From a virus: a stretch of 64,000 bases of DNA. Where the stretch lies: the IMG/VR virus record IMGVR_UViG_3300044648_000427. The stretch is one strand, 5' to 3'. Below, in pieces: positions 19,981 to 37,206 of the stretch; positions within the stretch are counted from its first letter, which is position 1, and each line of letters opens with the position of its first letter. Position numbers and translations under genes: made by a program. The notes below the pieces were generated by a model that saw nothing but the letters and a program-made list of their open reading frames with translations, made no database searches and was not told where the DNA came from.

Positions 19981-22427
19981 GCTTTCAAGATTTTCGTAAA
20001 TATAGTAGCTCTCGTCAAAATTCTAAAATTAAAGCTCTTCTCCAACGTTTAGAGAAATTCGAATCTGAAGCTAATCCTGTTGAAAACAATAACCTTTTTG
20101 CATTAGGTTTTACTAGTCGTAACTTTCTTACTTTTCATGATAATCTTGCTTTTTCCCGTTTACATACTCTTGCAGATGATGATGATTATAAATTAACTGC
20201 TGAACCTGACGGGAATTTATTTAAATTATGGTTTACGTTTGACGGAATAACGGAATTAGAGGATCATGCGTTATGGGGTCATATAGGTACTATTTACGGC
20301 GATAGCGGCTGTGACGCATTGGCCGAAGGTGTCTATGAGGGAATAGGAGCCGGAGGAACAATTTGTATGAAATTCAATGGAACCAATAAATATATTCAGG
20401 TTCTTCCATCGGAGCATTTAACAATAAATAATAAATCACAATTTTCAATTTTTATGCGTTTCAAAGTTGATGATGTAACTCAAACCCAAACCCTATTTGA
20501 AAAGTATGATGATTTAAATGGCTCATATGCTTACAAGGCAATCATAACAAACAGAAGAGTTGTATTTATGGTAAGTGTAAATGGAACAGGATATACCAAG
20601 GTTAATAACGCAAATTTGGTAAATAATACATGGTATGATGTTTGGATGAGACGTGATAATATTACACTAACAGTTTATGTAAATGGTTCAGATGCTACTG
20701 CTGGCTTAAATTCAGCAGGTTTCAGTGAAGAAGGTTTTAGTTCTGGTGGATTCACAACAAGATTTCCTCCAGTTGAATTTGAACCTATTCCTACCGGTAC
20801 AGGAGTGGGTACTTCATTACTTATAGGCGTGGATGGAACGTTACAGTCATTCTTTAAGGGTTATATTCAGGATTTTCGCATTTGGGGAAAACTTGTATCT
20901 TCTACTGAGATTTCTAATCAATGGACAAACAAAGTAAGTGTTTCAAATATTGCTTTTGAGCGATGTGCCGTTGTAGGATATGCTCCAATACGTTCTGCGA
21001 GGAGAAGAAGTTTTACGGAAACAATCACATTTGTTGATTCTCTTACCGTAACTTATAAACCTACTAATCCAAAGTTACGTTCTATTTCTAATAGTGTTAC
21101 TTTTAGTGATTCAATTACCCCTCTTACGAACGTTATCAAACCTGCTAATGTAGATGATACATTTACTTTTGGTGATTCTATATCAATATTTAGAGGAGCA
21201 ACTCAGGTCAAAGTAGGAGCAATAGTAAAATCTACTCAAACAACAGGTTTACCTCTTACTGTCAATTATGCAACAGACGTTGGATTTAGACCAAAATTTA
21301 TGTTATTTTGGGGGTCAAATGCAACATCATATAATTCATTCAGCCAAGATCCTAGATTTTTCATGGGTTTTTCTGATGGTACAAATAATATTGCTTATTG
21401 TGCAAGTTCAAATGATGGTACAGATACAACTGATACTGCAAAGGGTTTATATAATTCTGCAATTCTTGGAATAGACTATGACAATAATCTTGAATTTAAA
21501 GCAAATTGTACATTTTCAGATACAGGATTTAGTCTTATTTATTCTAATAACAATAATGTTGCTTCTATTATTAATTTTGTTGCTATAGGAGGATCTACAA
21601 TTACTAATATAAAGGTGGGAAGTTTTGCTCAACCAACATCTGCTACTGGCCTATTTTCAGTTACGGATGTAGGATTTAGTTCTGATGCTGTATTTTTATT
21701 GCCTACTCAATTTGCTACTATAAATTCGAAGACAGTTAATTTTGGCTTTTCCTTTGGGGCATTTAATACAAGTCAGGAATTTTCTATTTCAGGAACAGAT
21801 CAAGATAACGTTGGAACAACAGTAACTAGGAGAATTTCACGTAGCGATAGACTTATTACAATGTTAGGATCAGAACCTACTGGAATTCATACTGTTATGA
21901 AGATGGCTGATCTATCAGAGATTACACCAACTGGGTTTGATCTTAATTATGATGTTAATCAGGCTACAGGTGCAACAGCGGGATTATGTGGATATGCAGC
22001 ACTCAAAGGGATTAAATGTGCAATTGGAAAATTTACCGTAGCATCTGGTACTGGTATTCAGACAGTTACTAATTCTAGTATTTCATTCAAACCATTAGTA
22101 ATGATATTTATGTCTCATGGAAGAGTAGTTCAAACTAATACTACTCCATTAACAGAATGTAAACTTTCAATAGGTGCAGCGGTTGATTCTTTAAATCGAC
22201 GTTCATCTCATTTACACAGTGCAGATGCTTTAGGAGAAGGAACTGCGGTACATCAAGGAAAATCAAATTCTACTTTAACTGTGTTCGAAGCAAACGATAG
22301 TCACAGTAATTCAACTACACAATTAAGTTTTGATATTGTCTCTATGAATCAGGGGGAATTTACTATAAATAAAACTGTATATAATACAAGCAATACTATA
22401 GATATTCATTACATTGCGTTAGCTTAA
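19977..22427 (+). CDS. Tail fibre/adhesin with LamG (concanavalin A-like) domain
   Basis: MKFNGTNKYI, FSIFMRFK, NTWYDV, YVNG, FKGYIQDFRIW LamG motifs; repeated GF.P. beta-domain in the C-terminal half. Confidence 0.8.
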   Translation: MSFQDFRKYSSSRQNSKIKALLQRLEKFESEANPVENNNLFALGFTSRNFLTFHDNLAFSRLHTLADDDDYKLTAEPDGNLFKLWFTFDGITELEDHALWGHIGTIYGDSGCDALAEGVYEGIGAGGTICMKFNGTNKYIQVLPSEHLTINNKSQFSIFMRFKVDDVTQTQTLFEKYDDLNGSYAYKAIITNRRVVFMVSVNGTGYTKVNNANLVNNTWYDVWMRRDNITLTVYVNGSDATAGLNSAGFSEEGFSSGGFTTRFPPVEFEPIPTGTGVGTSLLIGVDGTLQSFFKGYIQDFRIWGKLVSSTEISNQWTNKVSVSNIAFERCAVVGYAPIRSARRRSFTETITFVDSLTVTYKPTNPKLRSISNSVTFSDSITPLTNVIKPANVDDTFTFGDSISIFRGATQVKVGAIVKSTQTTGLPLTVNYATDVGFRPKFMLFWGSNATSYNSFSQDPRFFMGFSDGTNNIAYCASSNDGTDTTDTAKGLYNSAILGIDYDNNLEFKANCTFSDTGFSLIYSNNNNVASIINFVAIGGSTITNIKVGSFAQPTSATGLFSVTDVGFSSDAVFLLPTQFATINSKTVNFGFSFGAFNTSQEFSISGTDQDNVGTTVTRRISRSDRLITMLGSEPTGIHTVMKMADLSEITPTGFDLNYDVNQATGATAGLCGYAALKGIKCAIGKFTVASGTGIQTVTNSSISFKPLVMIFMSHGRVVQTNTTPLTECKLSIGAAVDSLNRRSSHLHSADALGEGTAVHQGKSNSTLTVFEANDSHSNSTTQLSFDIVSMNQGEFTINKTVYNTSNTIDIHYIALA

Positions 22428-22463: not shown

Positions 22464-23435
22464 ATGTCTAGTGAGATTCTTGTTTCCCTTTTAGGTGGAG
22501 CTTGGGTCGGAGAGAATAATCTTTCTGCTCCACGTATGAATGCTAAAACCGTTTGGGTTGGAACGGGTGCAGCTTTATCTAATCTTTCTCCCACTTATCC
22601 CGGTCAGATAGCAGTATGTAGTTCAACCGAAAGTGGATTTATTAAAGATTCTGTTTATTATCGTGATACAGATAATGCAGGATGGTTATTCCTATCAATG
22701 TCTAAGCATACTCATAATGTTGACGATCATTTATCAGGTGGTCTTTATACTGATATAATGTATGATAATCTTATGAATGCTTATCAATGGGGTTCATTAA
22801 GTGTTACAAAGGAAATGTTTCATAATATTGTAGCTGGTTCGGCAACAATTACCAATGATTTAAGTTCTGCGTCCGGAAAAGTTGTTTTAGATTCTGGGGC
22901 TATTGCTAATGATTATGCACAGAGCGTAGTACCGCCGGGGGCTAAATTATCTTTTGCACGTAAATCTAGGTTATTAGCGAAAGTTGGAGTTACGTTTGGA
23001 GGTAGTGGAGTAACAAATTACATTACAAGAATTGGTGTTGCTGGGGAAGATATTAACGGAGCAAATACTACAAGTAATAAATATGGTATTGAAGCTTGTT
23101 CTCAAGATTCTCAGGTTAATTGGATGATATTTAGTGCTAATGCAGGAACTAGAACTGGAGGAACAGTAACAAGTTCTCCTGTAGATGCTGGTTATGATTC
23201 AAGTGGTAAAGGTTATAGATTAGATCATACACCGAACCTTGATATAAAATTTTATAATAATGGTGTAAATTGTGGTGCTAATTGTACAAAAACAAGTAAT
23301 AATCCAAATTCTGGAAATACAGGAACAGATTATGTATTACGATTAGGAATAAAATCTACTAATACCAATGCGAAGAAGATGGCGTTATTCGGTATTAGAC
23401 TTATAGGAACCATTTCAGATGCCGCTTGGGCATAG
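22464..23435 (+). CDS. Putative virion structural (fibre-associated) protein
   Basis: Gly/Ser/Thr-rich; HTH-like KHTH motif; TAGTT at -36. Confidence 0.55.
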   Translation: MSSEILVSLLGGAWVGENNLSAPRMNAKTVWVGTGAALSNLSPTYPGQIAVCSSTESGFIKDSVYYRDTDNAGWLFLSMSKHTHNVDDHLSGGLYTDIMYDNLMNAYQWGSLSVTKEMFHNIVAGSATITNDLSSASGKVVLDSGAIANDYAQSVVPPGAKLSFARKSRLLAKVGVTFGGSGVTNYITRIGVAGEDINGANTTSNKYGIEACSQDSQVNWMIFSANAGTRTGGTVTSSPVDAGYDSSGKGYRLDHTPNLDIKFYNNGVNCGANCTKTSNNPNSGNTGTDYVLRLGIKSTNTNAKKMALFGIRLIGTISDAAWA

Positions 23436-24398: not shown

Positions 24399-27300
24399 AT
24401 GGTTGTTCTGCCTAATGATATTAGATTCTTTTATTCAGGTGGTACTGATAATCAAAATCCACTTGCAAGTTTAGGTGGCCAAATTTCTGTTACTCAAATT
24501 ATTAATGAATCTCAAGAAAACGTCTTCAATAATGTTACATTAATTGAAGCTGATAACGGATTAACAGATTACCGTTGTTTTTACGTAAAAAATGTAGGTC
24601 AAGAATTATGGAGAAATGCGGTTATTTGGCGAGAACAAGGTACACAATCTGGATTTGATAGTATTGGTATTGGGTTAGGAACTTCTATAATTGATGGTAC
24701 TGAACAAATAGTATTAGATAGGTTTACAGCTCCTATAAACGTTAATTTTGCTGGCCCTGATAGTAAGGAAAGTGCTTTACTGCTAGGTGATCTTGCCCCC
24801 GGTTCACATAAAGCAATTTGGGTAAGAAGGATAGTAGAACCTTTAGCAAGAACATTCAAGAACAATACATTTAAATTAAGAGTTGAATTAGGAAATCCCG
24901 CTGGTAGCGGTGGTGGCGGAGGAACGCCACCGGGAAATCCGCCCGGTCTGCCCGGAACTGGTGGCGGTGGAGGAACTGGAACGGGATGTCAGACAGGATA
25001 TCATAAAGTAAATGGTGTGTGTATTCCTGATACAGTACCTCCTATTACTGGAGGTGGAGGAGAAAATATTTTATGGCAATCTACTGCATGGTCTAATGGT
25101 CATGATAGAACAATTACCTCTCATAATGCTAGAGATCCCGATGATCCTACATTATCATTTGGTGCTGGTGAAAACAGAGAATTAATTATTAAAGGTGCAT
25201 CAGATCCCGGATTTGTTAATCATACAGGTGCCAGAACTCGTATATATGTAGATCAATTTGGTACTACTACTAATCATTATAATGCTTCACTAGAAATTCA
25301 AAAGTTTTATATTAATTCTTCACTCGATGGGTTATCTCTTAGATTACGTTCACGTCATAATGAAGATGATCCCACAACTAATCGTTTTGGAGGCTATAAT
25401 ATGTCAGTACATCATACAGAAATTGAAGCTCAACGTGAAAATTATCATAACGATCATACTAGTCTTACACCTTCTACTATATCCCTTCCTCATGCATTGG
25501 TAAATGGAACCGAGTATGGTATAAGATATTCATGCAGAGATACAACAGATGGAAAAGTAGAATTAAAAATGGAATTAAAAGGTGGTGCATATGGAACAAG
25601 TTATGTTGAAGTAGCTAAAGCATATGATAATAATCCATCATCCTATATGCTTGATAAACAACTTTACCTTAATAATCGTTCGTATTTCTGGATAAGGACT
25701 AATGGAGATGCTCCAGAAGATGTTAGATATGGTTTTGTTGTTTTCAGAGATTTAGACAAAAGTTCTGTTACATCATGCCCTGCTGGGTATACACTTAAAA
25801 ATGGGGTCTGTGTTGCTGATACACTTCCTACTACTCAACCTCCTCCTTCAGGTGGTGGAGGGGCTACAATTGCAGATTATACAGCTACGGCAGTTGGTGA
25901 TACTACTTGTGGTAGTACAGCTCAAACTATTGTTAGTAGAATCGTAGGTAGAAATCCTAATTTCCATATACCTTTAGGTGATTATACATATACCAGTTCA
26001 ACTGCTTGTTGGTTATCCATGATGACTCCTCTAAAATCTAAAATATTTTCTATGAATATTGGAAATCATGATGATGAAGAAGATGAAAGTAACACGTTAC
26101 GATCACAATATTTATCTTGGGTTAATTTATCTCAACCATACCATGCTTTTACATTTCGGAATACATTTGTACTTACCCTTTATACTTATGCTCCGTTTGG
26201 GTTTGGTTCTGGTTCAGCTCAATTTCAATTTGCACAACAGCAATTAGCGGCTGCGAGGGCTAACCCTGCGATTGACTGGATTATTGTTAATTTCCACAAA
26301 CCAATTTATACTGCTGCATCTAATCATTCTGGTTATACAGCTTTTCGTGATGTTTATCACCCATTATTCGATCAATATAAAGTAGATTTATGTTTATCTG
26401 GGCACGTACACAATTATCAGCGTACTAAACCACTTAAATATACTGGTACTGGAACTGGTAATAGTATAGCTAACAATCAGACTACAGGTTATATAAATCT
26501 TGTTAATCCGATATTTGTAATTGCCGGGTGTGGAGGAAGAGAAATAAGTTCAATTAGTGACCAACCATCCTATAATGCTGGTCAACGTGAAGGATATGGT
26601 TATGTACTTATGTCATGGTCAAACAATGGTAAAAAGCTTACATGTAGACATTATGATCAAACAGATACTTTACGTGATGAATGGACAATGGACAAAACTG
26701 CGGTCAGCCAACCCCCACCACCCCCCAGCGGAGGAGGGGGAACAACGCCACCACCAACTACAGGAGGCCAAATAGATAGTAATGGAATTAAATGGTTACT
26801 AGCAACAGGTCAACAATCTGTAATTCCTAATTCAAGATATGATAAAAGTGGAGATGAAAATGATTTTCGTTGGTCAGAAGTTTATCCTAATTTGAGAGAT
26901 AATGGATTTGAAGTTACAGCATATGGTATATTTGAGACTACTAATGGTGATGCTCATTTTGCTCTCAAACATTGGGGAGGAAATCATAGTGGAGATTGTC
27001 AATATAGCGAAGGAGGGAGTTGTTGCTGTTGGTATGACACGGGTATACGTGAAAATGGAGCGGTACAATTACAAATTGAGCGACCTCACCCCTCAAATGA
27101 TGACTTTAGTGCTACTACATTTATGAGTAATATTGGAGTAGGTATGTCTAATAATACTATTGGCCTTAAATGGATAATATATCCAATTCAAGAAGGTGGA
27201 GATGTTGATCGTGGTGGAGTAAAGTTGAAAATGTATGTAGATACTAGTGGATTTTCAGCAAGTAAACCACAAAATCAATGGAGATTAGTGTATGATATTA

Positions 27301-29279
27301 CGGACACTGGACAAATATTAGGTGATTATCCAGCTCCAGAAGAACAGGAAATTGAAGTTCGTAATTCAGATACTAATGATACTGTTATGTATGGTGGAGG
27401 AATTCACTGGAGAAGATTAAGTAGGGCTGATATTAATGCAGGGGGTACGAGTGGCGGTGGTGGAACTACACCTCCCCCATCTTCACCAGCTCAACCTCCT
27501 ACAAATGTTACATACTATTATGATTCAACTACCACACAAAACACACCACAAACTATAGATGCAGAAGAGTATGATAGTACAGAAGGTATTATTGCATGTA
27601 GGCCAAATAATGGTATCACCTCAACAGTAATTTCAGGTGGATATATTAATGTTAAAAGTAATAATTCTTCTGGTGGTATATATATTGACTACTGGAAGAA
27701 ACCTCGGTTTACTCAGGATAATTTACCGGGATTTAATCAGGTAGTCTCATTTTCCTTTCTGTATGAAGGACAAGGAAGTATTACTGTTAAATCTGCAAAT
27801 GAAATGACAGAAACAAATTGGGATAATCTTGATACTGTATTCGGTGGGTTCATGGTATTTTTAAATACTTCCCTAGTTACTACGGAGGGATATTCTAATG
27901 AAGTAAGTTTCCGAGCAAGATATTATGATAATATAAACAGTCCAGATCTCGCTGTACCACAACCGAGCTGGCTAGGACGTAATTCTCCAAGAACTCCTGT
28001 AGGTACATATCCTTTTCCAGCAGGAAAAACATTTGTAAATGGGAACATTTATAAAGTATTTATTACTTATCGAACTAATCAAACAGCACAAACTGTTGTA
28101 ATAACTGTATGGTTAGACTTTAGTGATGGAGTTGGATGGAGAAAAATTGTTGATTCTCATACATTTGATAGACTTAATTGGCTTCCGGGTACTGTTCCAC
28201 AAGGCTATGATGATACGGAACAGATTGAACAAGGGCCTGACTTAATAAAACGACATAGAATAGTTATACGTAACAATAATGTAGATCAAGGATCTAATAC
28301 TGATCTAAAGGTTAAAGATATAAAAATTGGTACAATGCCATATTTACCAGATCCTATAATTACTAATCCCCCCGGCGGCGGTGGAACAACAAATCCACCT
28401 CCAGACGATCCAGATCCTCCATCCGGAACTTCTGGTAATGACGCAAATGGTGTAAAAATGATTTATCCAACTAAGGCAAGTGGAGATACATTTTTATGGG
28501 ATTTGTCAGGTTCTAATTCCCGAATTGCTGGGCAAAATGTAACTGCTGTTAGAAGTACATCAGGTGGCCCATGGGCATTTAGTAAGAATTCAACAAATCC
28601 ATTCCGTATATATATTTATACAAAAGAAAATAGTATTAGTAATATAAATACAACTCAATTATCTACCATTCCCCCTATAAGTACATTTAATCATAATTCA
28701 CTTGCAACTTTAGGTTATTTCTATCAAGCTAGGGATTGGAAAAACATTGAATTTACAATTTACTTTTCTACAGACATGATTGTAGTAAATGATCAAGAAT
28801 TACCAAGTACTCAAACATCTTTCTTAAGTTTAATTGCTAGATCTGCTAATCATACTACTGCTAATGGTGGATGTGGAGGATCATCATATCATGCTGATTT
28901 TAATATTCAAACAGGTGGTATTAGATTTAAAAAAGAGCAATATCATAGTTCATATGCTACTGATTCATTTACTGCTACGAATATTGGTTCCTCACAGGGT
29001 AGGTGGATGGGTCTGAAATTCGTCGTTTGGAATAGATCATCTGATGGAAAAGTTGAAATGGAAATATGGGTAGATAAAGATGCAACAAATAGTTGGGTAA
29101 AATATTTAGGAAAAATTGATGCTGATGATTGGGGAACTGGAGCAGCTCAATGTGCGGGAACGCCGCCGGGTAAAAAGATTACTTGGGGATCACCTGTTAC
29201 AATGTTAAAAATGGATGTAACTCAAACAACGTTATTTATATCATACTTGTCTGTTAGAGAGATTACTCCTCCAAGTTAA
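24399..29279 (+). CDS. Giant multidomain virion adhesin: anchor domain, four copies of an unannotated beta-domain and a purple-acid-phosphatase-type metallophosphoesterase
   Basis: N-terminal SGG...SLGG.IS...YRCFYVKN tail-anchor-type domain; GD/GDxxY/GNHD/H/GHVH motifs; Pro/Gly linkers. Confidence 0.75.
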   Translation: MVVLPNDIRFFYSGGTDNQNPLASLGGQISVTQIINESQENVFNNVTLIEADNGLTDYRCFYVKNVGQELWRNAVIWREQGTQSGFDSIGIGLGTSIIDGTEQIVLDRFTAPINVNFAGPDSKESALLLGDLAPGSHKAIWVRRIVEPLARTFKNNTFKLRVELGNPAGSGGGGGTPPGNPPGLPGTGGGGGTGTGCQTGYHKVNGVCIPDTVPPITGGGGENILWQSTAWSNGHDRTITSHNARDPDDPTLSFGAGENRELIIKGASDPGFVNHTGARTRIYVDQFGTTTNHYNASLEIQKFYINSSLDGLSLRLRSRHNEDDPTTNRFGGYNMSVHHTEIEAQRENYHNDHTSLTPSTISLPHALVNGTEYGIRYSCRDTTDGKVELKMELKGGAYGTSYVEVAKAYDNNPSSYMLDKQLYLNNRSYFWIRTNGDAPEDVRYGFVVFRDLDKSSVTSCPAGYTLKNGVCVADTLPTTQPPPSGGGGATIADYTATAVGDTTCGSTAQTIVSRIVGRNPNFHIPLGDYTYTSSTACWLSMMTPLKSKIFSMNIGNHDDEEDESNTLRSQYLSWVNLSQPYHAFTFRNTFVLTLYTYAPFGFGSGSAQFQFAQQQLAAARANPAIDWIIVNFHKPIYTAASNHSGYTAFRDVYHPLFDQYKVDLCLSGHVHNYQRTKPLKYTGTGTGNSIANNQTTGYINLVNPIFVIAGCGGREISSISDQPSYNAGQREGYGYVLMSWSNNGKKLTCRHYDQTDTLRDEWTMDKTAVSQPPPPPSGGGGTTPPPTTGGQIDSNGIKWLLATGQQSVIPNSRYDKSGDENDFRWSEVYPNLRDNGFEVTAYGIFETTNGDAHFALKHWGGNHSGDCQYSEGGSCCCWYDTGIRENGAVQLQIERPHPSNDDFSATTFMSNIGVGMSNNTIGLKWIIYPIQEGGDVDRGGVKLKMYVDTSGFSASKPQNQWRLVYDITDTGQILGDYPAPEEQEIEVRNSDTNDTVMYGGGIHWRRLSRADINAGGTSGGGGTTPPPSSPAQPPTNVTYYYDSTTTQNTPQTIDAEEYDSTEGIIACRPNNGITSTVISGGYINVKSNNSSGGIYIDYWKKPRFTQDNLPGFNQVVSFSFLYEGQGSITVKSANEMTETNWDNLDTVFGGFMVFLNTSLVTTEGYSNEVSFRARYYDNINSPDLAVPQPSWLGRNSPRTPVGTYPFPAGKTFVNGNIYKVFITYRTNQTAQTVVITVWLDFSDGVGWRKIVDSHTFDRLNWLPGTVPQGYDDTEQIEQGPDLIKRHRIVIRNNNVDQGSNTDLKVKDIKIGTMPYLPDPIITNPPGGGGTTNPPPDDPDPPSGTSGNDANGVKMIYPTKASGDTFLWDLSGSNSRIAGQNVTAVRSTSGGPWAFSKNSTNPFRIYIYTKENSISNINTTQLSTIPPISTFNHNSLATLGYFYQARDWKNIEFTIYFSTDMIVVNDQELPSTQTSFLSLIARSANHTTANGGCGGSSYHADFNIQTGGIRFKKEQYHSSYATDSFTATNIGSSQGRWMGLKFVVWNRSSDGKVEMEIWVDKDATNSWVKYLGKIDADDWGTGAAQCAGTPPGKKITWGSPVTMLKMDVTQTTLFISYLSVREITPPS

Positions 29280-30769
29280 ATATATACTGTACAAGCAAGA
29301 TCATAAGTAAGATCTTCCACATAATGACTACTAGGATTGGGTTCACGTCGTACTAAACAAGTTCTTGAACCATCATAAGGATCACTTTGATTAATCCCTA
29401 CTTTTAGATATGTTTGAGCTGTTCCTTCAGTATAAACTAATACTAATCTATCATCTTTAGCCATACGATGAGAATTGTTTAAATCCTCAAAATACACTAC
29501 TGTATCACCTTGAGGTAATGTAGTAACATCAATTGAACCAAATGTTGTAACTATATCATTTCCTGAATTCTTCTTGATATATAAAGTTGCCGTTCCTATA
29601 GCTCCTCCATATTTTGACATAATCATATCAACACGTCGAATTTTCTTTCCAATAAGTTGAGATTTATCATTTACATTATTATTTTGAACAGAATTATCAT
29701 GAGCGATTAAACCCACATGATCTCTATTATGATCAAGCGTTATATCATGAGTTTTCGGAACAGTAAATAGTACTTGTAATGGAGGAACATCAACTAGTAA
29801 TCCTGAACAACCATCTGATTCATTAAAGTTAATATTATATACACCAATAAGGTTTGCAAAAACGGCTCCTGTAATAGGCTCTTCTACTGGTGGTGGGTCA
29901 GTTGATCCCGGTGGTGGATCTGGGTCAGGGTCAGGGTCAGGATCTGGGTTACTTCCTCCAAGTAAAGTTATATCAATCTCTCTGATACTTAATTTCTTGA
30001 ATGTTACATTCCCATTACCTCCTTCCCATTTGTAAAATACATATGGCCCTCCATGAATTCCTATATAATCTGGGCCTCCGTCGGCACTTCCTGTTCCAGT
30101 AGTTTTTTGACATGCTCCAGCTTGTGATCCCCATCCTCCAGAATCAACGAATTCATCTACTTTTACCCATGTATTAGTTTCATCTGCATCGATATAAGTT
30201 TCTCCTCTAACATTAGTATTATTATTAATATTAAAAATTACAAATTTAAAACCTACCCATTTATCCTTAGGGGCAGTTACTGCTGTGGTCTTCTCAGGTG
30301 TTGATGATTGATTAACATGCCACTGTTCTTTGACAAAGCGAACCTTACCTGTTTTTAGGTTAAATGTGGATTTATAGGCAAATCCTTCGCATTTTTTATC
30401 TGAAAAATGTCTACCAGTTCTAACATAAAAAGCCATAACTTTATCAGATGTTCCAGAATAATTAAAATATGCAGTAACTTCAATATTTTTCCAGTCTTTA
30501 GCATCCATATAATAGCCTCGTTCTTTCAATGTATTATGATTAGTAGTTATATTTGATTGAACAAATCCTGCACTGGTTGTTATTCCTATTCTAACATCAT
30601 CTTGTTTAGTAATAGTATAATCTTCTGATGCTGATCTATAGGTAATTGTACCGTTATCTCCATATATATCTACTCTTCCATCCGCCATAGGGTTAGTATC
30701 AATAACCCATGATTCCCCGTTAATTTTGGATGGATAAATCATTTGTACACCTAATTGATCATTAGCCAT
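29276..30769 (-). CDS. Adhesin-like protein; N-terminal domain homologous to the last domain of 24399..29279
   Basis: GV.MIYP.K, DWKNIE.T.YF, G..RF.KEQ.H, W.G.KFV shared; DPDPDP linker. Confidence 0.75.
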   Translation of the reverse strand: MANDQLGVQMIYPSKINGESWVIDTNPMADGRVDIYGDNGTITYRSASEDYTITKQDDVRIGITTSAGFVQSNITTNHNTLKERGYYMDAKDWKNIEVTAYFNYSGTSDKVMAFYVRTGRHFSDKKCEGFAYKSTFNLKTGKVRFVKEQWHVNQSSTPEKTTAVTAPKDKWVGFKFVIFNINNNTNVRGETYIDADETNTWVKVDEFVDSGGWGSQAGACQKTTGTGSADGGPDYIGIHGGPYVFYKWEGGNGNVTFKKLSIREIDITLLGGSNPDPDPDPDPDPPPGSTDPPPVEEPITGAVFANLIGVYNINFNESDGCSGLLVDVPPLQVLFTVPKTHDITLDHNRDHVGLIAHDNSVQNNNVNDKSQLIGKKIRRVDMIMSKYGGAIGTATLYIKKNSGNDIVTTFGSIDVTTLPQGDTVVYFEDLNNSHRMAKDDRLVLVYTEGTAQTYLKVGINQSDPYDGSRTCLVRREPNPSSHYVEDLTYDLACTVYI

Positions 30770-30864
30770 AAGATCTGAGCTTAGATTTTGGTATTTATGA
30801 CAACTAAGTTTACCTTATTTCAGTTTCAATAGTTGTTTTGTTTGATTTATTTAAAAGTTTTCAT

Positions 30865-31053
30865 ATGAAGTTACAGAAAGGAGCGATTCTATCAAAGAAT
30901 AATGCAAGTTACATTACATGTGTGAAATGCGGCAGAGAGTTAAATATCTTTAATGAATACGATTATTATGATCTAAATGGATCATTCATTAAAGAATGCT
31001 GCGGGAAAATTCACACACTTACTCAACATACTTATATCTTCCAATATAACTAA
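30865..31053 (+). CDS. Small Zn-finger protein
   Basis: CVKC...CCG.IH; ATG at 30865 lies 35 nt after TAGTT. Confidence 0.5.
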   Translation: MKLQKGAILSKNNASYITCVKCGRELNIFNEYDYYDLNGSFIKECCGKIHTLTQHTYIFQYN

Positions 31054-31099
31054 GAGGAATCTTAGTTCTCTTTTTTATCTTTCCTTATAATTTCTCCAT

Positions 31100-31777
31100 A
31101 TGACTAAGAATAAAGAGCTAAAGAAGCTCGGAGAGCAAATTGACGAACTTGAAGAAGGAGAAATCAAGAAACAATTAAGTATCAATTATCGTAATATTTT
31201 ACACAACAACGGTGAATTACCTTGTGATGGCATTTGGAATGCAGCAATGGGTAAATGTGACGAATTTGATGAAACAAGTATCCCTCCAAAAGTATCAGCA
31301 GGAAGAAATAGAACAGTAGATGTAGGTGAATCTGTTACTTTAGCCGGAGAAATTAAAGATTTTAAAAATTATCTGGTATATAAAGGATGGAATCAAGTAA
31401 CTCATCCATCGGTTCCATTAGTACAACAAGAAGGTTCAGCAGATGGTTCAACTCTTATCATTCATCCAGTGAAGGAAGGAGAATATACATATCAATTTAC
31501 TGCAACAGATGTAAAAGGACATAGTGGTTCGGATACAGTAGTTGTAACAGTAAAATCAAAGGAAAGCAGAAAAGCAGAAAGAGAAGCAAAAGAAAAGAAA
31601 GAAGCTGAAGAAAAGGAACAAGCAGAGAAACAAGCTAAAGAAAATAAAATAATTGAAGAAAAACCAAAACCAATTGTTGAAGAAAAGAAACCAATTGAAG
31701 AAAAAAAACCAAACTTTCAAGGCTTTTTAAAGGCTGACGAGGAATTTAAACCAAAAGAATTCAATAGAGGTAAATAA
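31100..31777 (+). CDS. PKD-domain protein with charged tail
   Basis: PPKVSAG.N.TV..GESVTL.G...W.QV...G.YTYQFTATD..G.SGSDTVVVTV. Confidence 0.75.
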   Translation: MTKNKELKKLGEQIDELEEGEIKKQLSINYRNILHNNGELPCDGIWNAAMGKCDEFDETSIPPKVSAGRNRTVDVGESVTLAGEIKDFKNYLVYKGWNQVTHPSVPLVQQEGSADGSTLIIHPVKEGEYTYQFTATDVKGHSGSDTVVVTVKSKESRKAEREAKEKKEAEEKEQAEKQAKENKIIEEKPKPIVEEKKPIEEKKPNFQGFLKADEEFKPKEFNRGK

Positions 31778-31780
31778 TCA

Positions 31781-32557
31781 ATGTACAAAAACACCGTAAT
31801 TGTTGCAGCAATAGTGTTTATAACCCTATTTACTGCTTCAGTTACAACTTTTTCTCAAAAAGAAGAAGTACAACAAGTTATTTTAACTGATTTCATAAAA
31901 CAATATACTGATTACGGTCAACATGCTGACCCAGCTTATAGAGAAATTTATAATGTATTAAACTTATTTGACAATAAAGTAAATACAACTTATTCATTCT
32001 GGTCGCAACTTGGTGACTCAGGATTCGTCGCAGACTTGAAAGGCCCGATGGAACAACAAGTTTGTGGTGCTGAATTATATGTTTTTAATCCTCAAAATTC
32101 TCCCTTTGTTTTACGTCTGGGAGATAAAGAAATCACAGGATCGTTAGATTCTACAGTTAAAAAAATAGATATTCCTGATTGTGTTAAACAAATAGATAAA
32201 ATTTCTTTAGATATTGATGGTAGTACTTCAACTGATCTGGAAAATGCAAAATGGACAACACTAGAAGAACTTAAGATTTTCACAAAGAATGTTATACCTC
32301 CAGTATGTCCTCCAAATACAAAATGGGATGCAGATTTACAAAAATGTGTTCCAATTAATCCACCAATTGATAACGGTACAGATATTACAAATTCAAACAT
32401 AACTTTGAATGTATCAGGTTCAACAATTACAATAAATGCTGATGAGACAAGTGAAATTATCATCCCACAAAAACAATCTCTAATTCCAGAAAAGGAAGAT
32501 GAAGATGAGGATGAGGATGAAAAGAAAGACAAAAAGAAAAAAGGAGATAAAGATTAA
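31781..32557 (+). CDS. Secreted or membrane-anchored discoidin-like protein with Cys hairpin motif
   Basis: N-terminal hydrophobic segment; NLFD...FWS...WTTLEELKIF; CPPNTKWD...C. Confidence 0.6.
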   Translation: MYKNTVIVAAIVFITLFTASVTTFSQKEEVQQVILTDFIKQYTDYGQHADPAYREIYNVLNLFDNKVNTTYSFWSQLGDSGFVADLKGPMEQQVCGAELYVFNPQNSPFVLRLGDKEITGSLDSTVKKIDIPDCVKQIDKISLDIDGSTSTDLENAKWTTLEELKIFTKNVIPPVCPPNTKWDADLQKCVPINPPIDNGTDITNSNITLNVSGSTITINADETSEIIIPQKQSLIPEKEDEDEDEDEKKDKKKKGDKD

Positions 32558-35500
32558 TGATAAAAATAATTGCATTCGGTGATACTGATACAACTTCAGA
32601 CGCCTCAAGCATTATGGCTCAAATGGTAAAAGAGCCAAATGTAGATGTATTTTTAGGCTTAGGGGATTATCCTTATGCAGGCCGATCTACAAAATGGTGT
32701 AGCATGGTAGATCAACATTTCACCCCAGAACTAAAAGGAAGATTAATGCTTAATCAAGGAAACCATGAAGATGAAGAATCAGAAACAGAAGCTTCTCAAC
32801 AAGATATAGAAAAATGGGTAAATGATCATAATAGTAAACATCCACAATATAAAATGGATAAACTCGATATTACTCCACCTGAAGCAAATGGCGGAGATTC
32901 AACATGGGAAAAACCTACATGGTTAACCTCACGACAAGTAGGCAATGTCTACATTATAAATATGAATACTCAAGACATGGATGTTGAGTTCAAGAGGAAT
33001 CAATATAATTGGGTACTTGCTGAAATTAATAAAGCTAAACAATTAAAAGCTGAAGGTAAAATTGATTGGATAATCAATACAGCTCATAAACCTTGGTTTA
33101 CTTTAAAATCCAGCCACAGCCCTTATACAGCAGTTAGAAAGATTTATAGTGATCTATTTAAAGATGTTGTAGATTTCAACCTTCACGGTCATAATCATAA
33201 TACACAATTATGGTTGCCAATGGTTGCAGACGATACAAGTGGTAATGGAACTGGTACACAACTTTTCACTTATGCTTCAGATGGTAAGACTTTTGATTTC
33301 ACTAAATCTCATGGATGGCTGACCATAGTTTCGGGGCATGCTGGCCATGAACACAATGGAATTAAAGAGACTGGAAATAAAAATTGTATGTGGTTTAATG
33401 ATACGGCTTTTGGATATACTGTAATAGAAATTGACGGTAAAAAAGCTCATGTTATAGCAAAAGATGAAACAGGAGATACTATGTTTGAATACTTTGTAAC
33501 AAAAGAAGGTGGAACTCCAGATGATAATCCACTAGCTAAATTACTCGTTCCTTCACAAGTAGCAGTTGGATCAACTGTAACACTTGATGGAAGTCAATCT
33601 GTTGCTGATACATTAACAATTACACAGACCTTGGGAACACCTGTAAATCTCACAGATGCAGGCAAATTCAAGAAATCATTTGTCGTACCTGACGCTAATT
33701 CTATAATGGCAGCAGGTAACTTCGCATTGGGTTTCCAAGCAGTAGCACAAAAAGGAACCAAACAATCTATAGCACAAGTATCAATACAAGTTACTACAAC
33801 AGATCCAGCAGATCCACCAGTGGCTAAATTAACTGCTCCAACAAGTGCAATAGCAGGATCAAAGGTTATACTGAATGCAAATGGATCAACTAATTATGAT
33901 AGTCTGGTATTTTCACAAATATCTGGGCCAAACGTTTTAATTGAACCACTCGATGCATTAAGGAAACAGTTTAACGCACCAAATACTCCCACACAATTAG
34001 GATTTGAACTTAAAGCTATTAAGGGCACACAACAATCAACAGCTCAAGCAACCATACAAATTAATTCTGAATCTTCAACTGGAGAGACAAAACTCATACC
34101 AATCAGCGTTGCAGCATCAGGGCAAGATTTAGGCAAAGAAGCTTCAAAAGCCGCAGATGGAAATTTCGAATCCAGATGGTCATGTGATGGAGATGGAGAA
34201 TGGATAGAATTTAAATTTGATAAAGTTTATCCGATTACCAAAGTAAAATTAACATGTTATCATTATGATAAAACATATAAATTTGAAATTAAAGGAAAAC
34301 AATTCGAAAATCCAGCAGGAAGACCAGTAAATTCATTAGTAGAATATGACTTGAAAGACCTTAACATTATAAGTGATACAGTAAGGATAATTGGACATGG
34401 AAATAATCTAACTACATATAACTCTTTCCGAGAAATTGAATTCTATTCTGGAACCGCAGACCCACGTCATTGTCAACCGGGTTGGCACTGGGATGATACG
34501 TTAAAACGTTGTATACCAGATTTGGAACCACCTATAAATCCAAATAATAAACCACCAGTTGCAAATGCAGGACAAGATCAAACTGTAGCTCCAAAATCTA
34601 CGGTAACACTAAATGGATTGGCTAGCTCAGACCCAGATGGAACGATAAGTTCATATTCATGGACTCAGTTAAGCGGCCCAACAGTAAGTATAAGTAATGC
34701 AAATACAGCAGTTGCTTCATTTATTGCACCAGATCTTGATACGCCACAACCACAAACTCCAATAGCGGTAATAACGCCAAACACGCTTACAGGATTAAAA
34801 GGTTCAACTTTAACAGTTTCAGGTACAAGTTCTCAAAATGCAAGTACATACAAATGGGTAGCAAGTTCTGGAAATTCAATATCCGGTTCAAGCACTAATT
34901 CAACAGCTAACATTGTACTTTCTGGTACAGTTGGTAGTAATAATAGTGTAACTTTAACCGTTACAAATTCAACAGGGCAAACTAATAGTGTAACCAAAAC
35001 TATAAATATAACGACAACTCCATCTACCGAACTAGATGCAGAAGCAGAAGCACTTATATTAGCCAAAGTTGGTGAAACAGTTTTACTAAAAGATAACGGT
35101 TCTAAAGGAGCAATTACACGTCATGAATGGCTAAAAGAAACACCTGATGCACAAGCAATTCAATTAATTGCCAATTCAAGTGCAAAATTCGGAGCTAAAT
35201 TCATTGCAACAAGCAATATGGTAGATAAAGATATTAGATTCAGATTAAGGGTTTTCGACGCTCAAAACAACTTTAATGATGATATAACTGGCACTAAAGT
35301 ATCAATTACCGCTGGAACTCCAAGTGGCGGATTCGGTCAAGATGCATTCGGAATGAAGATGCTTCTCAAACCAACAGGTAAGAAAATCGCTATGGAATGG
35401 GGTACAGACCACGAAAATGGCCAAAGATTTAACGTAAATCATGAATTCCATAATTATATAATGCAAGGGTACTTTAAGCTAGGATCAGGTCAAGATGCAA

Positions 35501-37206
35501 TAAACCACAAGGGAGACGGCCCCAACCATGGAGGATGTACGTCAACAAGTAACTTTATCTGTCTATGGTATGAGCTTCATTTGGAGCTTTCCACAGGAAA
35601 AGGTGAATTACAATACGAATTCCCTCATCCAAAGAACAATAACGTTGACTCTTCAAAATTGGAATTATCCAAATCTATAGGCAAATTAAATGCTGGACAA
35701 TGGATAGGATGGGCTACCGCTTATTACTGGGGTGCTGATGGATACAGGCATATAAAAGCCTTTGTTGATCCAAATCCATTCCCTAACAACGATCCAAACC
35801 AAAAACCATTGAATAATTGGGATAATGTTGTATATGCAGTTGAAAGAGGTCAAATAGTACCAAATATTACAATGCCAAGAGACTTGCAGAAAGTAATAGA
35901 TTCTGATGCGGGATTTGAAAGTGAAATCCGTATGAACAATGCAAATTCGGGAACAACTGATATGAAAAACGTATGGGTTATGGAAGTTGATCCAAAAGTA
36001 ACAGGAATTCAACCATTAATGAACCAAACAATCAATTGGCAAGTATTACCTGACAAGAGTTCTAAAGAACGAAGAGCATTAGATGAAGAACGAGATAGAG
36101 AATTAGGTATAAATGATGATATAAAACCAAAGAAAATTAAAGAAGCTATAACTACCGCACTTCCAAAAGATTTACTATTCCAACTCAGAGTAACAGATAA
36201 TAAAGGGTCTAGTAGCACAGATACAGTAAAGATTACTGTTTCAGACTCTTCACTCCCACCACCTCCAGATGATGTAGATGCTAAATTCCCTGAATTATTA
36301 GCAAAAGCAACACCCGGCAGTACATTCGTACTTGATGGTTCCCAATCAACAGGAAATATTACATCATGGAATATTAAACAAGATGAAGGCCCAACAGTTC
36401 AATTATTAGATAATCCGAAGAAATGTTCAAAACAGTTTACAATGCCAAATGAAAAAGTCAAATTTACTCTAACTGTAAGTAATTCAACAAAATCAAATTC
36501 TGATACAATTACCGTAAATCCAGATGATGAACAGCCAACAGGTGATATATTATATGATTCAAATATTCATGGTAAATGGAATGATGGAAACAAACGAACT
36601 GTAGATGATAAAGAAGGAAATCAATCACCGGATGGAAAAGGATTTCATACTGCTGCATCAGGTAATCCTAGATTTATAATCGATGGTGATGGTGTAGGAC
36701 ACTTAGAAGCAGATTCAGGACATGGCCGTATCTATATCCTAGCCAAAAACTACAATTCCAGACTAGAATTTGACTTTATGTTTGAAGATGAAAATATAGA
36801 TAACATATCTTTCAAGTTAAGAAGTAGACATCAAGAAGGTTCTGATTGTAAGAACAGATTTGGTGGTTTCGGGGGTGCCATAGATAGAGCAGGTGGAGAA
36901 ATTGATTTCCAGACAGAAAGTTGTCATAACGAACACGAAAACAAGATTGCAAAACCAATTCCGCCATTCCAAACAGGTACATGGCATAAAGCGGCAATAT
37001 CGGTATGGGATAAACCAGACAAAAGTGCAGTTAATCTGAAAGCAGAAATAGATGGTAAAGAAGTTTTAACCGGAGAACATAAGAATCCTCAACCCTATTA
37101 TGTTGATGAGGCAAAATTCATGGAACAAAGTTATTTCTGGTTAAGAATAAATAATTCAAAGACAGGTAAAGTAGCCTTCAAAAATGTTAGATTAATTAAA
37201 ATCTAA
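32557..37206 (+). CDS. Multidomain protein: metallophosphoesterase, PKD repeats, F5/8 discoidin and two unannotated beta-domains
   Basis: FGD, GDYPY, GNHE, AHKP, GHNH motifs; AADGNFESRWS (F5/8); PPVANAG.DQTV (PKD). Confidence 0.85.
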   Translation: MIKIIAFGDTDTTSDASSIMAQMVKEPNVDVFLGLGDYPYAGRSTKWCSMVDQHFTPELKGRLMLNQGNHEDEESETEASQQDIEKWVNDHNSKHPQYKMDKLDITPPEANGGDSTWEKPTWLTSRQVGNVYIINMNTQDMDVEFKRNQYNWVLAEINKAKQLKAEGKIDWIINTAHKPWFTLKSSHSPYTAVRKIYSDLFKDVVDFNLHGHNHNTQLWLPMVADDTSGNGTGTQLFTYASDGKTFDFTKSHGWLTIVSGHAGHEHNGIKETGNKNCMWFNDTAFGYTVIEIDGKKAHVIAKDETGDTMFEYFVTKEGGTPDDNPLAKLLVPSQVAVGSTVTLDGSQSVADTLTITQTLGTPVNLTDAGKFKKSFVVPDANSIMAAGNFALGFQAVAQKGTKQSIAQVSIQVTTTDPADPPVAKLTAPTSAIAGSKVILNANGSTNYDSLVFSQISGPNVLIEPLDALRKQFNAPNTPTQLGFELKAIKGTQQSTAQATIQINSESSTGETKLIPISVAASGQDLGKEASKAADGNFESRWSCDGDGEWIEFKFDKVYPITKVKLTCYHYDKTYKFEIKGKQFENPAGRPVNSLVEYDLKDLNIISDTVRIIGHGNNLTTYNSFREIEFYSGTADPRHCQPGWHWDDTLKRCIPDLEPPINPNNKPPVANAGQDQTVAPKSTVTLNGLASSDPDGTISSYSWTQLSGPTVSISNANTAVASFIAPDLDTPQPQTPIAVITPNTLTGLKGSTLTVSGTSSQNASTYKWVASSGNSISGSSTNSTANIVLSGTVGSNNSVTLTVTNSTGQTNSVTKTINITTTPSTELDAEAEALILAKVGETVLLKDNGSKGAITRHEWLKETPDAQAIQLIANSSAKFGAKFIATSNMVDKDIRFRLRVFDAQNNFNDDITGTKVSITAGTPSGGFGQDAFGMKMLLKPTGKKIAMEWGTDHENGQRFNVNHEFHNYIMQGYFKLGSGQDAINHKGDGPNHGGCTSTSNFICLWYELHLELSTGKGELQYEFPHPKNNNVDSSKLELSKSIGKLNAGQWIGWATAYYWGADGYRHIKAFVDPNPFPNNDPNQKPLNNWDNVVYAVERGQIVPNITMPRDLQKVIDSDAGFESEIRMNNANSGTTDMKNVWVMEVDPKVTGIQPLMNQTINWQVLPDKSSKERRALDEERDRELGINDDIKPKKIKEAITTALPKDLLFQLRVTDNKGSSSTDTVKITVSDSSLPPPPDDVDAKFPELLAKATPGSTFVLDGSQSTGNITSWNIKQDEGPTVQLLDNPKKCSKQFTMPNEKVKFTLTVSNSTKSNSDTITVNPDDEQPTGDILYDSNIHGKWNDGNKRTVDDKEGNQSPDGKGFHTAASGNPRFIIDGDGVGHLEADSGHGRIYILAKNYNSRLEFDFMFEDENIDNISFKLRSRHQEGSDCKNRFGGFGGAIDRAGGEIDFQTESCHNEHENKIAKPIPPFQTGTWHKAAISVWDKPDKSAVNLKAEIDGKEVLTGEHKNPQPYYVDEAKFMEQSYFWLRINNSKTGKVAFKNVRLIKI

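Follow-up and report, generated by a model that had tools for sequence, protein, structure and literature searches.

What is the function of an unannotated domain that a virus repeats across three of its proteins, in the two largest of them beside phosphatase modules? This question is raised by positions 24,399 to 37,206 of a 64,000-nt stretch of viral DNA (IMG/VR record IMGVR_UViG_3300044648_000427; one strand, 5' to 3'), which as a whole is called the window here. The domain carries a His followed by Glu-x-x-His (H...ExxH) and has no match in Pfam, NCBIfam or PDB sequences, in agreement with a first-pass annotation that had listed it as unannotated. Our preferred answer, held at about even confidence, is that it is a glycan-binding module, a reading that we rank ahead of a glycan-cleaving enzyme.

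Proteins, modules and domain copies

The three open reading frames lie where the first-pass annotation had put them. ORF calls and translations give P0001 (24399-29279, plus strand; 1,626 aa) and P0003 (32557-37206, plus strand; 1,549 aa), both putative modular appendage proteins, and P0002 (29276-30769, minus strand; 497 aa). A search of their 3,672 residues with the regular expression H(15-45)ExxH returned six intact copies, exactly at the sites first described, and no further match. When the six domains were shuffled 2,000 times, such a pattern appeared in a mean of 0.52 of the six, and six of six was never reached.

Type A is represented by A1 in P0001 (25038-25766, plus strand, aa 214-456; local A3 HMM, E = 3e-81), with the triad RSRH320/ENYH350 (H320 at nt 25356, E347 at 25437, H350 at 25446), and by A2 in P0003 (36520-37203, plus strand, aa 1322-1549; AlphaFold model ma1c9d86b8d09, pLDDT 93.9), with RSRH1425/ESCH1457 (H1425 at 36829, E1454 at 36916, H1457 at 36925). 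The type B copies are B1 in P0001 (26751-27434, plus strand, aa 785-1012; B HMM, E = 1e-84), where a Cys-rich loop separates the triad residues GGNH863/ERPH897 (H863 at 26985, E894 at 27078, H897 at 27087), and B2 in P0003 (35290-36006, plus strand, aa 912-1150; B HMM, E = 3e-82), with GPNH991/EFPH1024 (H991 at 35527, E1021 at 35617, H1024 at 35626). Type C comprises C1 in P0001 (28431-29276, plus strand, aa 1345-1626; local A2 HMM, E = 1e-80), with SANH1485/EQYH1516 (H1485 at 28851, E1513 at 28935, H1516 at 28944), and C2 in P0002 (29966-30769, minus strand, aa 1-268; AlphaFold model mfb06fdbf7169, pLDDT 87.6), with TGRH121/EQWH151 (codons starting at 30409 for H121, 30328 for E148 and 30319 for H151).

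A suspected seventh, degenerate copy in P0001 (27495-28328, plus strand, aa ~1033-1310) proved to be real. It matches the type A profile in hhalign (98.8%, E = 1e-16), KLRSRH being aligned to TVKSAN so that RSRH has become KSAN, and ExxH is absent from it. This decayed, type-A-derived copy is kept in the related giant proteins P0075, P0081, P0135 and P0069.

Pfam, local HMMs and regular expressions bear out the claim that P0001 and P0003 carry their modules in different orders. In P0001, local HMMs place an N-terminal domain, a Cys hairpin, type A, a second Cys hairpin, a purple-acid-phosphatase (PAP)-type domain, type B, the decayed A copy and type C in succession; the N-terminal domain is of a phage-structural-module kind (aa 15-152 match phrog_13135). 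P0003 runs from a PAP domain through a PKD-like domain, F5/8 type C, a Cys hairpin, PKD repeats, type B and PKD to type A, with Pfam matches to Metallophos, K319L-like PKD and F5_F8_type_C. The PAP-type metallophosphoesterase domain of P0001 (25863-26708, plus strand, aa 489-770; PF00149, E = 9e-12, with the Pfam Metallophos match at aa 507-673) is related by BLASTP to the N-terminus of P0003 (E = 2e-21). The Cys-hairpin linker module, found by regular expression on the translations, reads CQTGYHKVNGVCIPD at 24987-25031 (plus strand, P0001) and has further copies at 25776-25820 (P0001) and 34471-34521 (P0003). The part of P0002 outside type C (29276-29965) consists of a Pro/Asp linker and then an uncharacterised C-terminal domain of ~200 aa.

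Family relationships, triad and fold

The copies form a single domain family with three subtypes, as had been proposed. BLASTP connects the copies within each subtype (A1-A2, E = 4e-19; B1-B2, E = 7e-6; C1-C2, E = 7e-34), and hhalign connects the subtypes with one another (B-C 99.5%, E = 5e-23; A-C 95.9%, E = 6e-9; A-B 72.9%, E = 3e-5), with His, Glu and His column-matched in all three alignments. Identity across subtypes is only ~15%, and the triad is the sole feature common to all of them. Conservation was computed on 270 domain copies from an exhaustive search. Each triad residue is present in 18/18 copies of subtype A; subtype B has the first His in 39 of 41 copies and the Glu and second His in 41 of 41; the entire triad is intact in 172 of the 210 copies of subtype C. 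The type C residues vanish jointly (19-22 copies per pair; Fisher p from about 1e-16 to 1e-23), D194 is partly co-lost with them (p ~1e-5), and E97, T99, K175 and D209 are retained, with no association with triad loss. These results support the triad as the family's defining conserved feature, acting as one functional unit.

The AlphaFold models of types C and A are concanavalin-A (ConA)-like beta-sandwiches, which fits the jelly-roll guess of the first-pass annotation, and a structural search gave the two types the same fold and the same best match, Bacillus subtilis YesU (PDB 1oq1; Pfam DUF1961). The similarity reaches Z 15.9 for type C (rmsd 2.9 Å, 191 residues) and Z 17.1 for type A (rmsd 3.1 Å, 183 residues), and YesU, comparable in size, also consists of one ConA-like, galectin-like sandwich. 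Experiments have established that YesU binds fucosylated glycans, with a sub-micromolar KD (PMC6120924). It differs from the viral domain in sequence (9-10% identity in the structural alignment, and no match to PF09224 even at E = 10) and in location, being described as cytosolic whereas the viral domain's family is secreted, anchored or viral. The next matches are the galactocerebrosidase lectin domain, CBM66, ERGIC-53/VIP36, the receptor-binding domain of mycobacteriophage TM4 gp23 and the Douge baseplate protein, and BFVD returned phage minor tail, tail-fibre and ConA-like proteins. The scores of GH16 and PL7/14/20 enzymes are lower by 2-4 Z units. The list is flat (Z 17 to 13 over 50 entries) and mixes lectins with GH16 glycosidases and PL7/14/20/36 lyases, so the fold by itself does not discriminate binding from catalysis.

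In the models, the loop rim of the sandwich carries both the first His and the Glu-x-x-His. DSSP puts the first His 2-3 residues beyond a strand end; the Glu stands second or third from its strand's end, and the second His falls in the next turn. The strand between the first His and ExxH opens with small residues (GG in A, G or C in B and C), and the loop past the first His is among the less confident stretches of both models (block pLDDT 65 and 74). His, Glu and His would be expected to cluster in space.

A classical 2-His-1-carboxylate facial triad does not describe this site: its residues run H...E-x-x-H, not H-x-D/E...H, and it sits on a ConA-like, not a cupin/DSBH, fold. That part of the earlier interpretation falls; the single family, the shared beta-sandwich, the conserved triad and the phosphatase fusions stand.

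Binding, catalysis or scaffold

The nearest structural neighbours are not enzymes but lectins, carbohydrate-binding modules (CBMs) and phage receptor-binding domains, and for this reason our reading tilts to the metal-dependent lectin that the first-pass annotation had offered as one option. L-type lectins (legume lectins, ERGIC-53, VIP36, Emp47p) and CBM66 share the fold (Z 13-17) and are carbohydrate-binding modules. In legume and ERGIC-53/VIP36 lectins, acidic and His residues in loops hold metal ions that shape the sugar site, and this arrangement is the proposed working model for the triad domain. The candidate ligands would be His, Glu and His, with or without Asp194, in place of the Asp/Asn/Glu/His set of the lectins, and the triad domain matches no Pfam lectin profile. 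The ConA-like modules of phages (TM4 gp23 C-terminal receptor-binding domain, 9n6a; Douge baseplate, 8zdo; J-1 Dit CBM2, 5ly8) have the same fold (Z 12.7-15.5) and, like the triad domain, occur in tail-module proteins; as modules for adhesion to host glycans they are its likely counterparts in function. They have no sequence relationship to the triad family, which, unlike them, combines three subtypes in giant proteins with phosphoesterase domains and is abundant in the secretome of the presumed host itself.

We propose that P0001-P0003 are fibre-like tail-appendage proteins built from shuffled extracellular-type modules. The triad would be a small polar ligand site, probably with a divalent metal, that makes up or shapes a pocket for glycans, and the modules would work as lectin- or CBM-like adhesion domains; both metal and glycan binding by the triad are predicted. 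Combining subtypes in one protein would give the virion multivalent, multi-specific attachment to S-layer or EPS glycans of the host and would also carry phosphoesterase domains onto them. Cells deploy the same domains in secreted or membrane-anchored surface proteins.

A possible but less probable reading is that the domain is a new glycan-cleaving or -modifying family on a ConA-like scaffold (a lyase, hydrolase or esterase, possibly metal-dependent). Its active site would then be His/Glu/His, triad-less copies would be inactive binding derivatives, and several depolymerase-type activities would accompany the phosphoesterases on the virion. The triad is lost as a unit, and a polar triad strictly invariant at ~15% subtype identity would sooner be expected of a catalytic or metal site than of sugar contacts; cells also commonly have standalone single-domain secreted forms. 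In many cellular proteins the triad domain comes last, at the C-terminus, after CBM32-like and Ig domains, the usual layout of secreted CAZymes in which the final domain is the catalytic one. GH16, PL7, PL14, PL20 and PL36 enzymes share the fold (Z 12-15), but their defining motifs are absent here: neither the GH16 ExDxxE nor the PL7 R-x-E-x-R motif was found in the domains. Catalytic residues of GH16 and PL7 lie mid-strand in the concave cleft, whereas DSSP strings suggest strand ends and turns as the place of the triad. R117, Y132 and Q149-x-H151, residue types employed by beta-jelly-roll lyases, are conserved in type C, but subtypes A and B do not keep the R/Y/Q residues. One bacterial member, the Massilia "polysaccharide lyase" WP_218606522.1, joins a PF14099 lyase domain to type C, and a neighbouring paralogue has PF14099 twice, type C thus standing where the paralogue has its second lyase domain; the triad domain has, however, no profile relation to PF14099 domains. 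Same-subtype tandem repeats, frequent in the family as in binding modules, also speak against an enzyme, as do the non-catalytic top structural neighbours; mixed-subtype tandems are common as well.

It is improbable that the triad serves structure alone, as a metal or hydrogen-bond site that keeps the sandwich stable outside the cell, with the domains as spacers or scaffolds and ligand recognition elsewhere (e.g., in F5/8 type C, PKD or LamG). Such a role would suit a rim site beside the conserved type C Cys127-Cys220 pair, a typical extracellular stabilising feature, and many partner domains are themselves binding modules. Yet ~18% of type C copies are without the whole triad and retain the conserved fold residues, so the fold does not depend on the triad. 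Moreover, 19 of the 22 multi-copy proteins with a triad-less copy have an intact copy as well, and 158 of 169 single-copy proteins (93%) have an intact triad, which argues that the triad gives the protein its function, not its stability.

Tail-module setting and cellular relatives

The three genes lie downstream of those for a 2099-aa tail/tape-measure-like protein and a LamG-bearing 816-aa protein, and a related viral contig has an identical gene order and module order. These genes are thus supported as part of the tail module, and synteny suggests that their products may be placed on the virion. No signal peptides were found in P0001, P0002 or P0003, unlike in many cellular homologues, which bear signal peptides, a lipoprotein signal or a transmembrane anchor.

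At 50% identity the family falls into at least 1,501 clusters. Most members are secreted or membrane-anchored proteins of Nitrososphaeraceae, with 4-5 matches in each of the three genomes searched, and some come from soil bacteria. Among 80 representatives, partner domains include F5/8 type C (18/80) and Metallophos (8/80), along with Big, PKD, LamG, CBM_14, Spherulin4 and Polysacc_lyase; the partners are extracellular glycan-related modules. The reported fusion to PAP-type domains thus recurs in the viral proteins and in representative homologues. That recurrence, together with Arg/Lys-rich conserved positions near the triad (type A R99, R101 and R207; type C R117, K147 and K175), a cellular type A gene adjoining a secreted PAP-like gene and a MopE-type copper-binding motif in one representative, could suggest a non-glycan ligand: an anionic, phosphate-containing polymer on which the fused phosphoesterases act, a scavenged metal ion such as copper, a requirement of ammonia oxidisers, or a protein of the host surface. 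This is the least probable reading, as among 13 cellular type A loci only one has a PAP neighbour, no result points to copper or a protein ligand, and the partner domains are mostly glycan-related.

The nearest relatives of type C are Nitrososphaeraceae proteins, and a Nitrososphaeraceae MAG contig carries a homologue of a neighbouring tail gene at 35% identity (E = 2e-40). Soil Nitrososphaeraceae (ammonia-oxidising archaea) are the most likely host of this tailed virus.

Copies, subtypes, and conservation of the triad

The three open reading frames reported by the first-pass annotation lie where it placed them and encode modular viral proteins that we call P0001 (24399-29279, plus strand, 1626 aa), P0002 (29276-30769, minus strand, 497 aa), and P0003 (32557-37206, plus strand, 1549 aa). 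A regular-expression search of their 3,672 residues for a His followed after 15 to 45 residues by Glu-x-x-His recovered the six triad sites that had been claimed and zero others: H320/E347/H350, H863/E894/H897, and H1485/E1513/H1516 in P0001 (copies A1, B1, and C1, named for the three domain subtypes), H121/E148/H151 in P0002 (C2), and H991/E1021/H1024 and H1425/E1454/H1457 in P0003 (B2 and A2). When the six domains were shuffled 2,000 times, a mean of 0.52 of the six carried the pattern, and all six never did.

Copies of the same subtype find each other by BLASTP (A1-A2, E = 4e-19; B1-B2, E = 7e-6; C1-C2, E = 7e-34). Between subtypes, comparison of profiles built from alignments of database homologues gave probabilities of 99.5% for B and C (E = 5e-23), 95.9% for A and C (E = 6e-9), and 72.9% for A and B (E = 3e-5), with the triad His, Glu, and His in identical columns in all three alignments; the subtype HMMs also cross-match the domains of the other subtypes (E = 1e-6 to 1e-14). 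The asserted homology of the copies thus holds, as does their fusion to phosphatases: Pfam detects Metallophos in both giants, and PKD-type repeats and a weak F5/8 type C match among the three proteins. The giants do use their modules in different orders, P0001 running A, PAP (a purple-acid-phosphatase-type metallophosphoesterase domain), B, decayed A, and C and P0003 running PAP, B, and A; the giants also contain three short Cys-hairpin linkers (24987-25031, 25776-25820, and 34471-34521). The degenerate copy described earlier exists as well, since the type A profile aligns with residues about 1033-1310 of P0001 (98.8%, E = 1e-16), and it has lost the triad, with TVKSAN where KLRSRH is expected and without an ExxH. 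This decayed type A copy is retained in related giant proteins.

Conservation was counted after 270 copies of the domain had been aligned to the family profile. Each triad residue is present in all 18 type A copies; in type B the first His is found in 39 of 41 copies and the Glu and second His in all 41; and the complete triad is found in 172 of 210 type C copies. Besides the triad, only a mostly conserved Asp (D194, P0002 numbering) is common to all three subtypes. Triad loss in type C is usually joint, with each pair of residues lost together in 19 to 22 copies (Fisher p = 3e-16 to 1e-22, values that overstate the evidence because the copies are not phylogenetically independent, although the pattern is plain in the listed sequences). 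Triad-less type C copies keep E97, T99, K175, and D209 (none of these four is associated with triad loss), while D194 is lost partly along with the triad (p about 1e-5). The triad is intact in 158 of the 169 single-copy proteins, and 19 of the 22 multi-copy proteins that hold a triad-less copy hold an intact one too. Because the triad is lost jointly with fold residues kept, and because single copies stay intact, it would seem to be dispensable for folding and required for the function of the protein. The proposal of a functional triad is upheld by its conservation across subtypes and its loss as a unit in type C, and, judged from the alignments, the triad appears to act as one functional unit.

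Fold of the domain and predicted position of its site

The jelly-roll fold proposed in the first-pass annotation is borne out by AlphaFold2 models based on family alignments, in which type C (P0002 residues 1-268; pLDDT 87.6, pTM 0.89) and type A (P0003 residues 1324-1549; pLDDT 93.9, pTM 0.90) both form a concanavalin A (ConA)-like beta-sandwich that is nearly all strand, with one or two short helices. The models cover types A and C; type B is placed in the fold through its 99.5% profile match to type C. In an exhaustive structural comparison, the top match for both models is 1oq1, the Bacillus subtilis protein YesU, which has a galectin-like fold. The type C model aligns with it over 191 residues at Z = 15.9 and rmsd 2.9 Å, and the type A model over 183 residues at Z = 17.1 and rmsd 3.1 Å. 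With VIA-align, more than 50 members of the ConA-like lectin/glucanase superfamily align over 160 to 200 residues at Z of 12 to 17. After 1oq1 come the galactocerebrosidase lectin domain, CBM66, ERGIC-53/VIP36, the C-terminal receptor-binding domain of mycobacteriophage TM4 gp23, and a Douge baseplate protein; GH16 glycosidases and PL7, PL14, PL20, and PL36 lyases rank lower (Z = 12 to 15). Foldseek gives a probability of 1.00 to legume lectins and CBM66, and its searches of the PDB and BFVD return legume lectins, CBM66, neurotoxin binding domains, and phage minor tail proteins and fibers at TM scores of 0.4 to 0.6. Because this list of matches is flat, it fixes the fold as ConA-like lectin/glucanase but does not single out a family. 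On the models, then, the H...ExxH domain belongs to the ConA-like lectin/glucanase fold superfamily.

YesU and the triad domain are alike in fold, but no sequence relation to the YesU family profile (DUF1961, PF09224) was found: it matched none of the three whole proteins at E values up to 1 and none of 45 type C domains at E values up to 10, and it was not found in the type C-bearing genomes of Archangium and Massilia. YesU itself was shown to bind fucosylated glycans (PMC6120924). The triad domains themselves had zero matches in Pfam, NCBIfam, and PHROGs, and neither the single domains nor the type C profile had a credible match by sequence in the PDB, in agreement with the earlier view that the domain is unannotated.

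According to the DSSP assignments for both models, the first His comes 2 to 3 residues after a strand (residues 111-118 in type C and 91-100 in type A), the Glu is the second- or third-last residue of a later strand (143-149 and 124-133, respectively), and the second His is in the turn after the Glu strand. At the start of the intervening strand are small, invariant residues (CEG in type C, FGG in type A, CC in type B), and the loop past the first His is among the less confident stretches (block pLDDT 65 and 74). If the three strands form a meander, the three residues of the triad would come together at a single rim of the sandwich, over the glycines, and the site would be more like the loop-borne metal/sugar sites of L-type lectins than the mid-strand cleft of GH16 and PL7. 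The L-type lectins (legume lectin, ERGIC-53/VIP36) resemble the triad domain in fold at Z of 13 to 14.6, and they carry a loop-borne Ca/Mn site of Asp, Asn, Glu, and His beside the monosaccharide pocket.

Glycan binding or catalysis

The reading that we prefer, at roughly even probability, is that the domain is a predicted glycan-binding module, probably metal-assisted. Binding is favored because the top structural neighbors are lectins, carbohydrate-binding modules, and phage receptor-binding domains; because same-subtype and mixed-subtype tandems are frequent (the latter including A-B-C, C-B, B-A, and others); because the domain adjoins clearly catalytic domains (PAP, Spherulin4, PF14099); and because the site would probably lie at the rim.

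That the domain instead represents a new enzyme family seems doubtful, though several observations speak for it: the triad is polar and invariant, single-domain secreted forms are common, the domain is placed C-terminally behind CBM32-like and Ig modules, and in a Massilia gene pair type C occupies the slot of the paralogue's second PF14099 lyase domain. Type C also has an Arg, a Tyr, and a Gln-x-His, the kinds of residue used by beta-jelly-roll lyases, but subtypes A and B do not conserve them. PL7-type lyases (PL7/PL18, with the related PL14, PL20, and PL36) rely on a catalytic Arg (R-[ST]-E-[LV]-R), a Gln-x-His, and a Tyr on a YFKAG-type strand. The R-x-E-x-R motif is missing from all six copies, Q-x-H is present in the two type C copies only, positions 117, 132, and 149 are not conserved across subtypes, and the Pfam lyase profiles do not match the triad domains. 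GH16 enzymes carry a catalytic E-x-D-x-x-E signature on a central strand; it is missing in five of the six copies, the sole instance (A2 domain position 174) lies outside the conserved core and is not in A1, and the Pfam profile Glyco_hydro_16 has no match to the triad domains. By these signatures the domain belongs neither to the PL7-type lyases nor to GH16. Kinship to the PF14099 lyase domains was considered and rejected, as the subtype profiles, compared by hhalign with the Massilia PF14099 domains, reached at most 43% probability and left the triad unaligned.

The most far-reaching version of an enzymatic role, which we hold to be improbable, is that the domain would be the catalytic core of a new, probably metal-dependent CAZyme family (lyase or hydrolase) on a lectin-like scaffold, with which soil ammonia-oxidizing archaea would remodel their own EPS or S-layer glycans and which their viruses would have taken up in three specificities, as virion-borne depolymerases alongside phosphoesterases. 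A structural site or a non-glycan ligand takes up what probability remains. The 2-His-1-carboxylate-like site raised at first is not a classical facial triad: non-heme Fe(II) enzymes of that kind have H-x-D/E...H on a cupin or double-stranded beta-helix fold, whereas here the ligand order is H-(26 to 33 residues)-E-x-x-H on a ConA-like fold.

Either main outcome would be of consequence, a catalytic site defining a new CAZy-type family and a metal-dependent lectin defining a new L-type-lectin-like superfamily branch that spans archaea, soil bacteria, and viruses. The clean three-residue site, gained and lost jointly, makes the matter testable.

Viral setting, probable host, and distribution

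The domain genes follow a tail-assembly region that encodes a 2099-aa protein matching a PHROG tail protein and a protein of 816 aa; genes for a helicase and a ribonucleotide reductase that bears an intein are found further along. The 816-aa tail-module protein (19977-22427) carries Pfam Laminin_G_3, a second ConA-like module unrelated by sequence to the triad domain, and the reductase large subunit (50558-54265) is split by a LAGLIDADG homing-endonuclease intein (Pfam Intein_splicing and LAGLIDADG_3). The N-terminal domain of P0001 (24399-24900, aa 1-165) matches phrog_13135, and its first 150 residues match small hypothetical proteins of Vibrio T4-like phages and one of an Alteromonas N4-like phage that is encoded two genes upstream of the portal gene; this N-terminal domain may be the virion-attachment part.

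A related metagenomic virus (L100:2613-17262, JGI 3300085975) encodes a P0002 homologue 85% identical and retains the gene order, convergent orientation, and module order. Its P0001 homologue (1923 aa) is extended by about 300 NHL/SGL-like residues between B and the decayed A; its P0003 homologue (1860 aa) is longer too. The inserts within a kept order show that modules are inserted inside a conserved frame. The tail-module genes, the synteny and module order shared with this contig, and the phage receptor-binding domains among the structural neighbors speak for a possible receptor-binding role of the phage-tail kind, and the three proteins may be located on the virion tail. None of the three has a signal peptide, as would be expected of proteins assembled into particles in the cytoplasm. 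Viral tail appendages are well known to carry lectin-fold modules; the conserved site is what is distinctive here.

The longest inverted repeat of the region (28436-28474 and 30726-30764; 39 nt, 77% complementary) lies at the beginning of the type C domain in each of the convergent genes for P0001 and P0002, where it codes for a conserved N-terminal family motif (DKFGIKKIYPTK-like; GVKMIYPTK and GVQMIYPSK). The inverted repeats between the convergent type C genes of L100 fall on other conserved motifs, none at a domain start, and the gene orientation is the same in both viruses, which leaves an invertible cassette unsupported, and we treat the repeat as a by-product of homology.

A Nitrososphaeraceae host is supported by three observations taken together: a 35%-identical homologue (E = 2e-40) of the tail gene at 22464-23435 on a Nitrososphaeraceae MAG contig, the G+C of the window (about 0.33), and the distribution of the domain. 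A six-copy profile searched against 1.84 billion representatives matched 1,501 clusters when E values up to 1e-3 were admitted, 717 with a cutoff of 1e-10, and 89 with one of 1e-30, so that the family comprises at least 1,501 clusters at 50% identity. Type C homologues come mostly from Nitrososphaeraceae and Nitrosocosmicus genomes, including contigs of 0.9 to 1.6 Mb, and usually stand C-terminal to F5/8 type C and Ig-like domains or alone after a signal peptide. Four to five matches were found in each of three Nitrososphaeraceae genomes (in secreted or anchored proteins), four in Archangium gephyra, and one in Massilia sp. CF038. Type A is present in Nitrososphaeraceae too (25 of 101 genomes searched at E up to 1e-3, 10 of these at E below 1e-40), in cellular proteins of about 235 to 290 aa that have a membrane anchor at the N terminus and a Pro/Thr linker. 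Among 80 representatives, the partner domains include F5/8 type C (18), Metallophos (8), LamG (4), PKD (4), CBM_14 (3), several Ig types, Spherulin4, and Polysacc_lyase. An IMG/VR scan with a pattern from the type C alignment returned one locus, the pattern being too narrow to gauge viral distribution.

In a quick FastTree phylogeny of type C, two viral lineages (C1-like and C2-like) fall outside a large cellular clade (SH-like support 95), and bacterial domains from Myxococcota, Massilia, Dokdonella, and Clostridiaceae MAGs (loci L008, L024, L026, L027, L043, L054, and L060) are nested among Nitrososphaeraceae sequences. This nesting suggests transfer between soil archaea and bacteria, in either direction.

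By the sequence searches made here, this is a new, large, unannotated family in a well-known fold class, with no relative in Pfam, NCBIfam, or solved structures, and it appears to be common to soil ammonia-oxidizing archaea, some soil bacteria, and archaeal viruses. Soil Nitrososphaeraceae account for a large share of soil ammonia oxidation, and to our knowledge little is known of their cell-surface biology or of its recognition by their viruses; two papers on soil viruses of ammonia-oxidizing archaea do not mention lectin, concanavalin, or phosphatase. With multiple diverged copies in putative tail appendages of Nitrososphaeraceae viruses, the family offers a concrete handle for studies of host range and adsorption, and it is a candidate for a new family of lectins or enzymes directed at the EPS and S-layer glycans of archaea.

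Two cellular loci deserve mention. In Massilia sp. CF038 (L043:2976-6768), two secreted paralogues encoded side by side are 59% identical over an N-terminal region in which the PF14099 polysaccharide-lyase profile was matched in one of the two; the C terminus is a clear PF14099 lyase domain in one and an intact type C H/ExxH domain in the other, a natural domain swap. The NCBI name "polysaccharide lyase" for the type C protein derives from its N-terminal domain. A phosphoesterase neighborhood was rejected as a general rule, a PAP-like neighbor being found at only 1 of 13 cellular type A loci. At the Nitrososphaeraceae locus L087 (G056:C50:100029-114715), a type A protein with a membrane anchor is encoded about 0.9 kb from a divergently oriented gene for a secreted PAP-like metallophosphoesterase, echoing the viral fusion.
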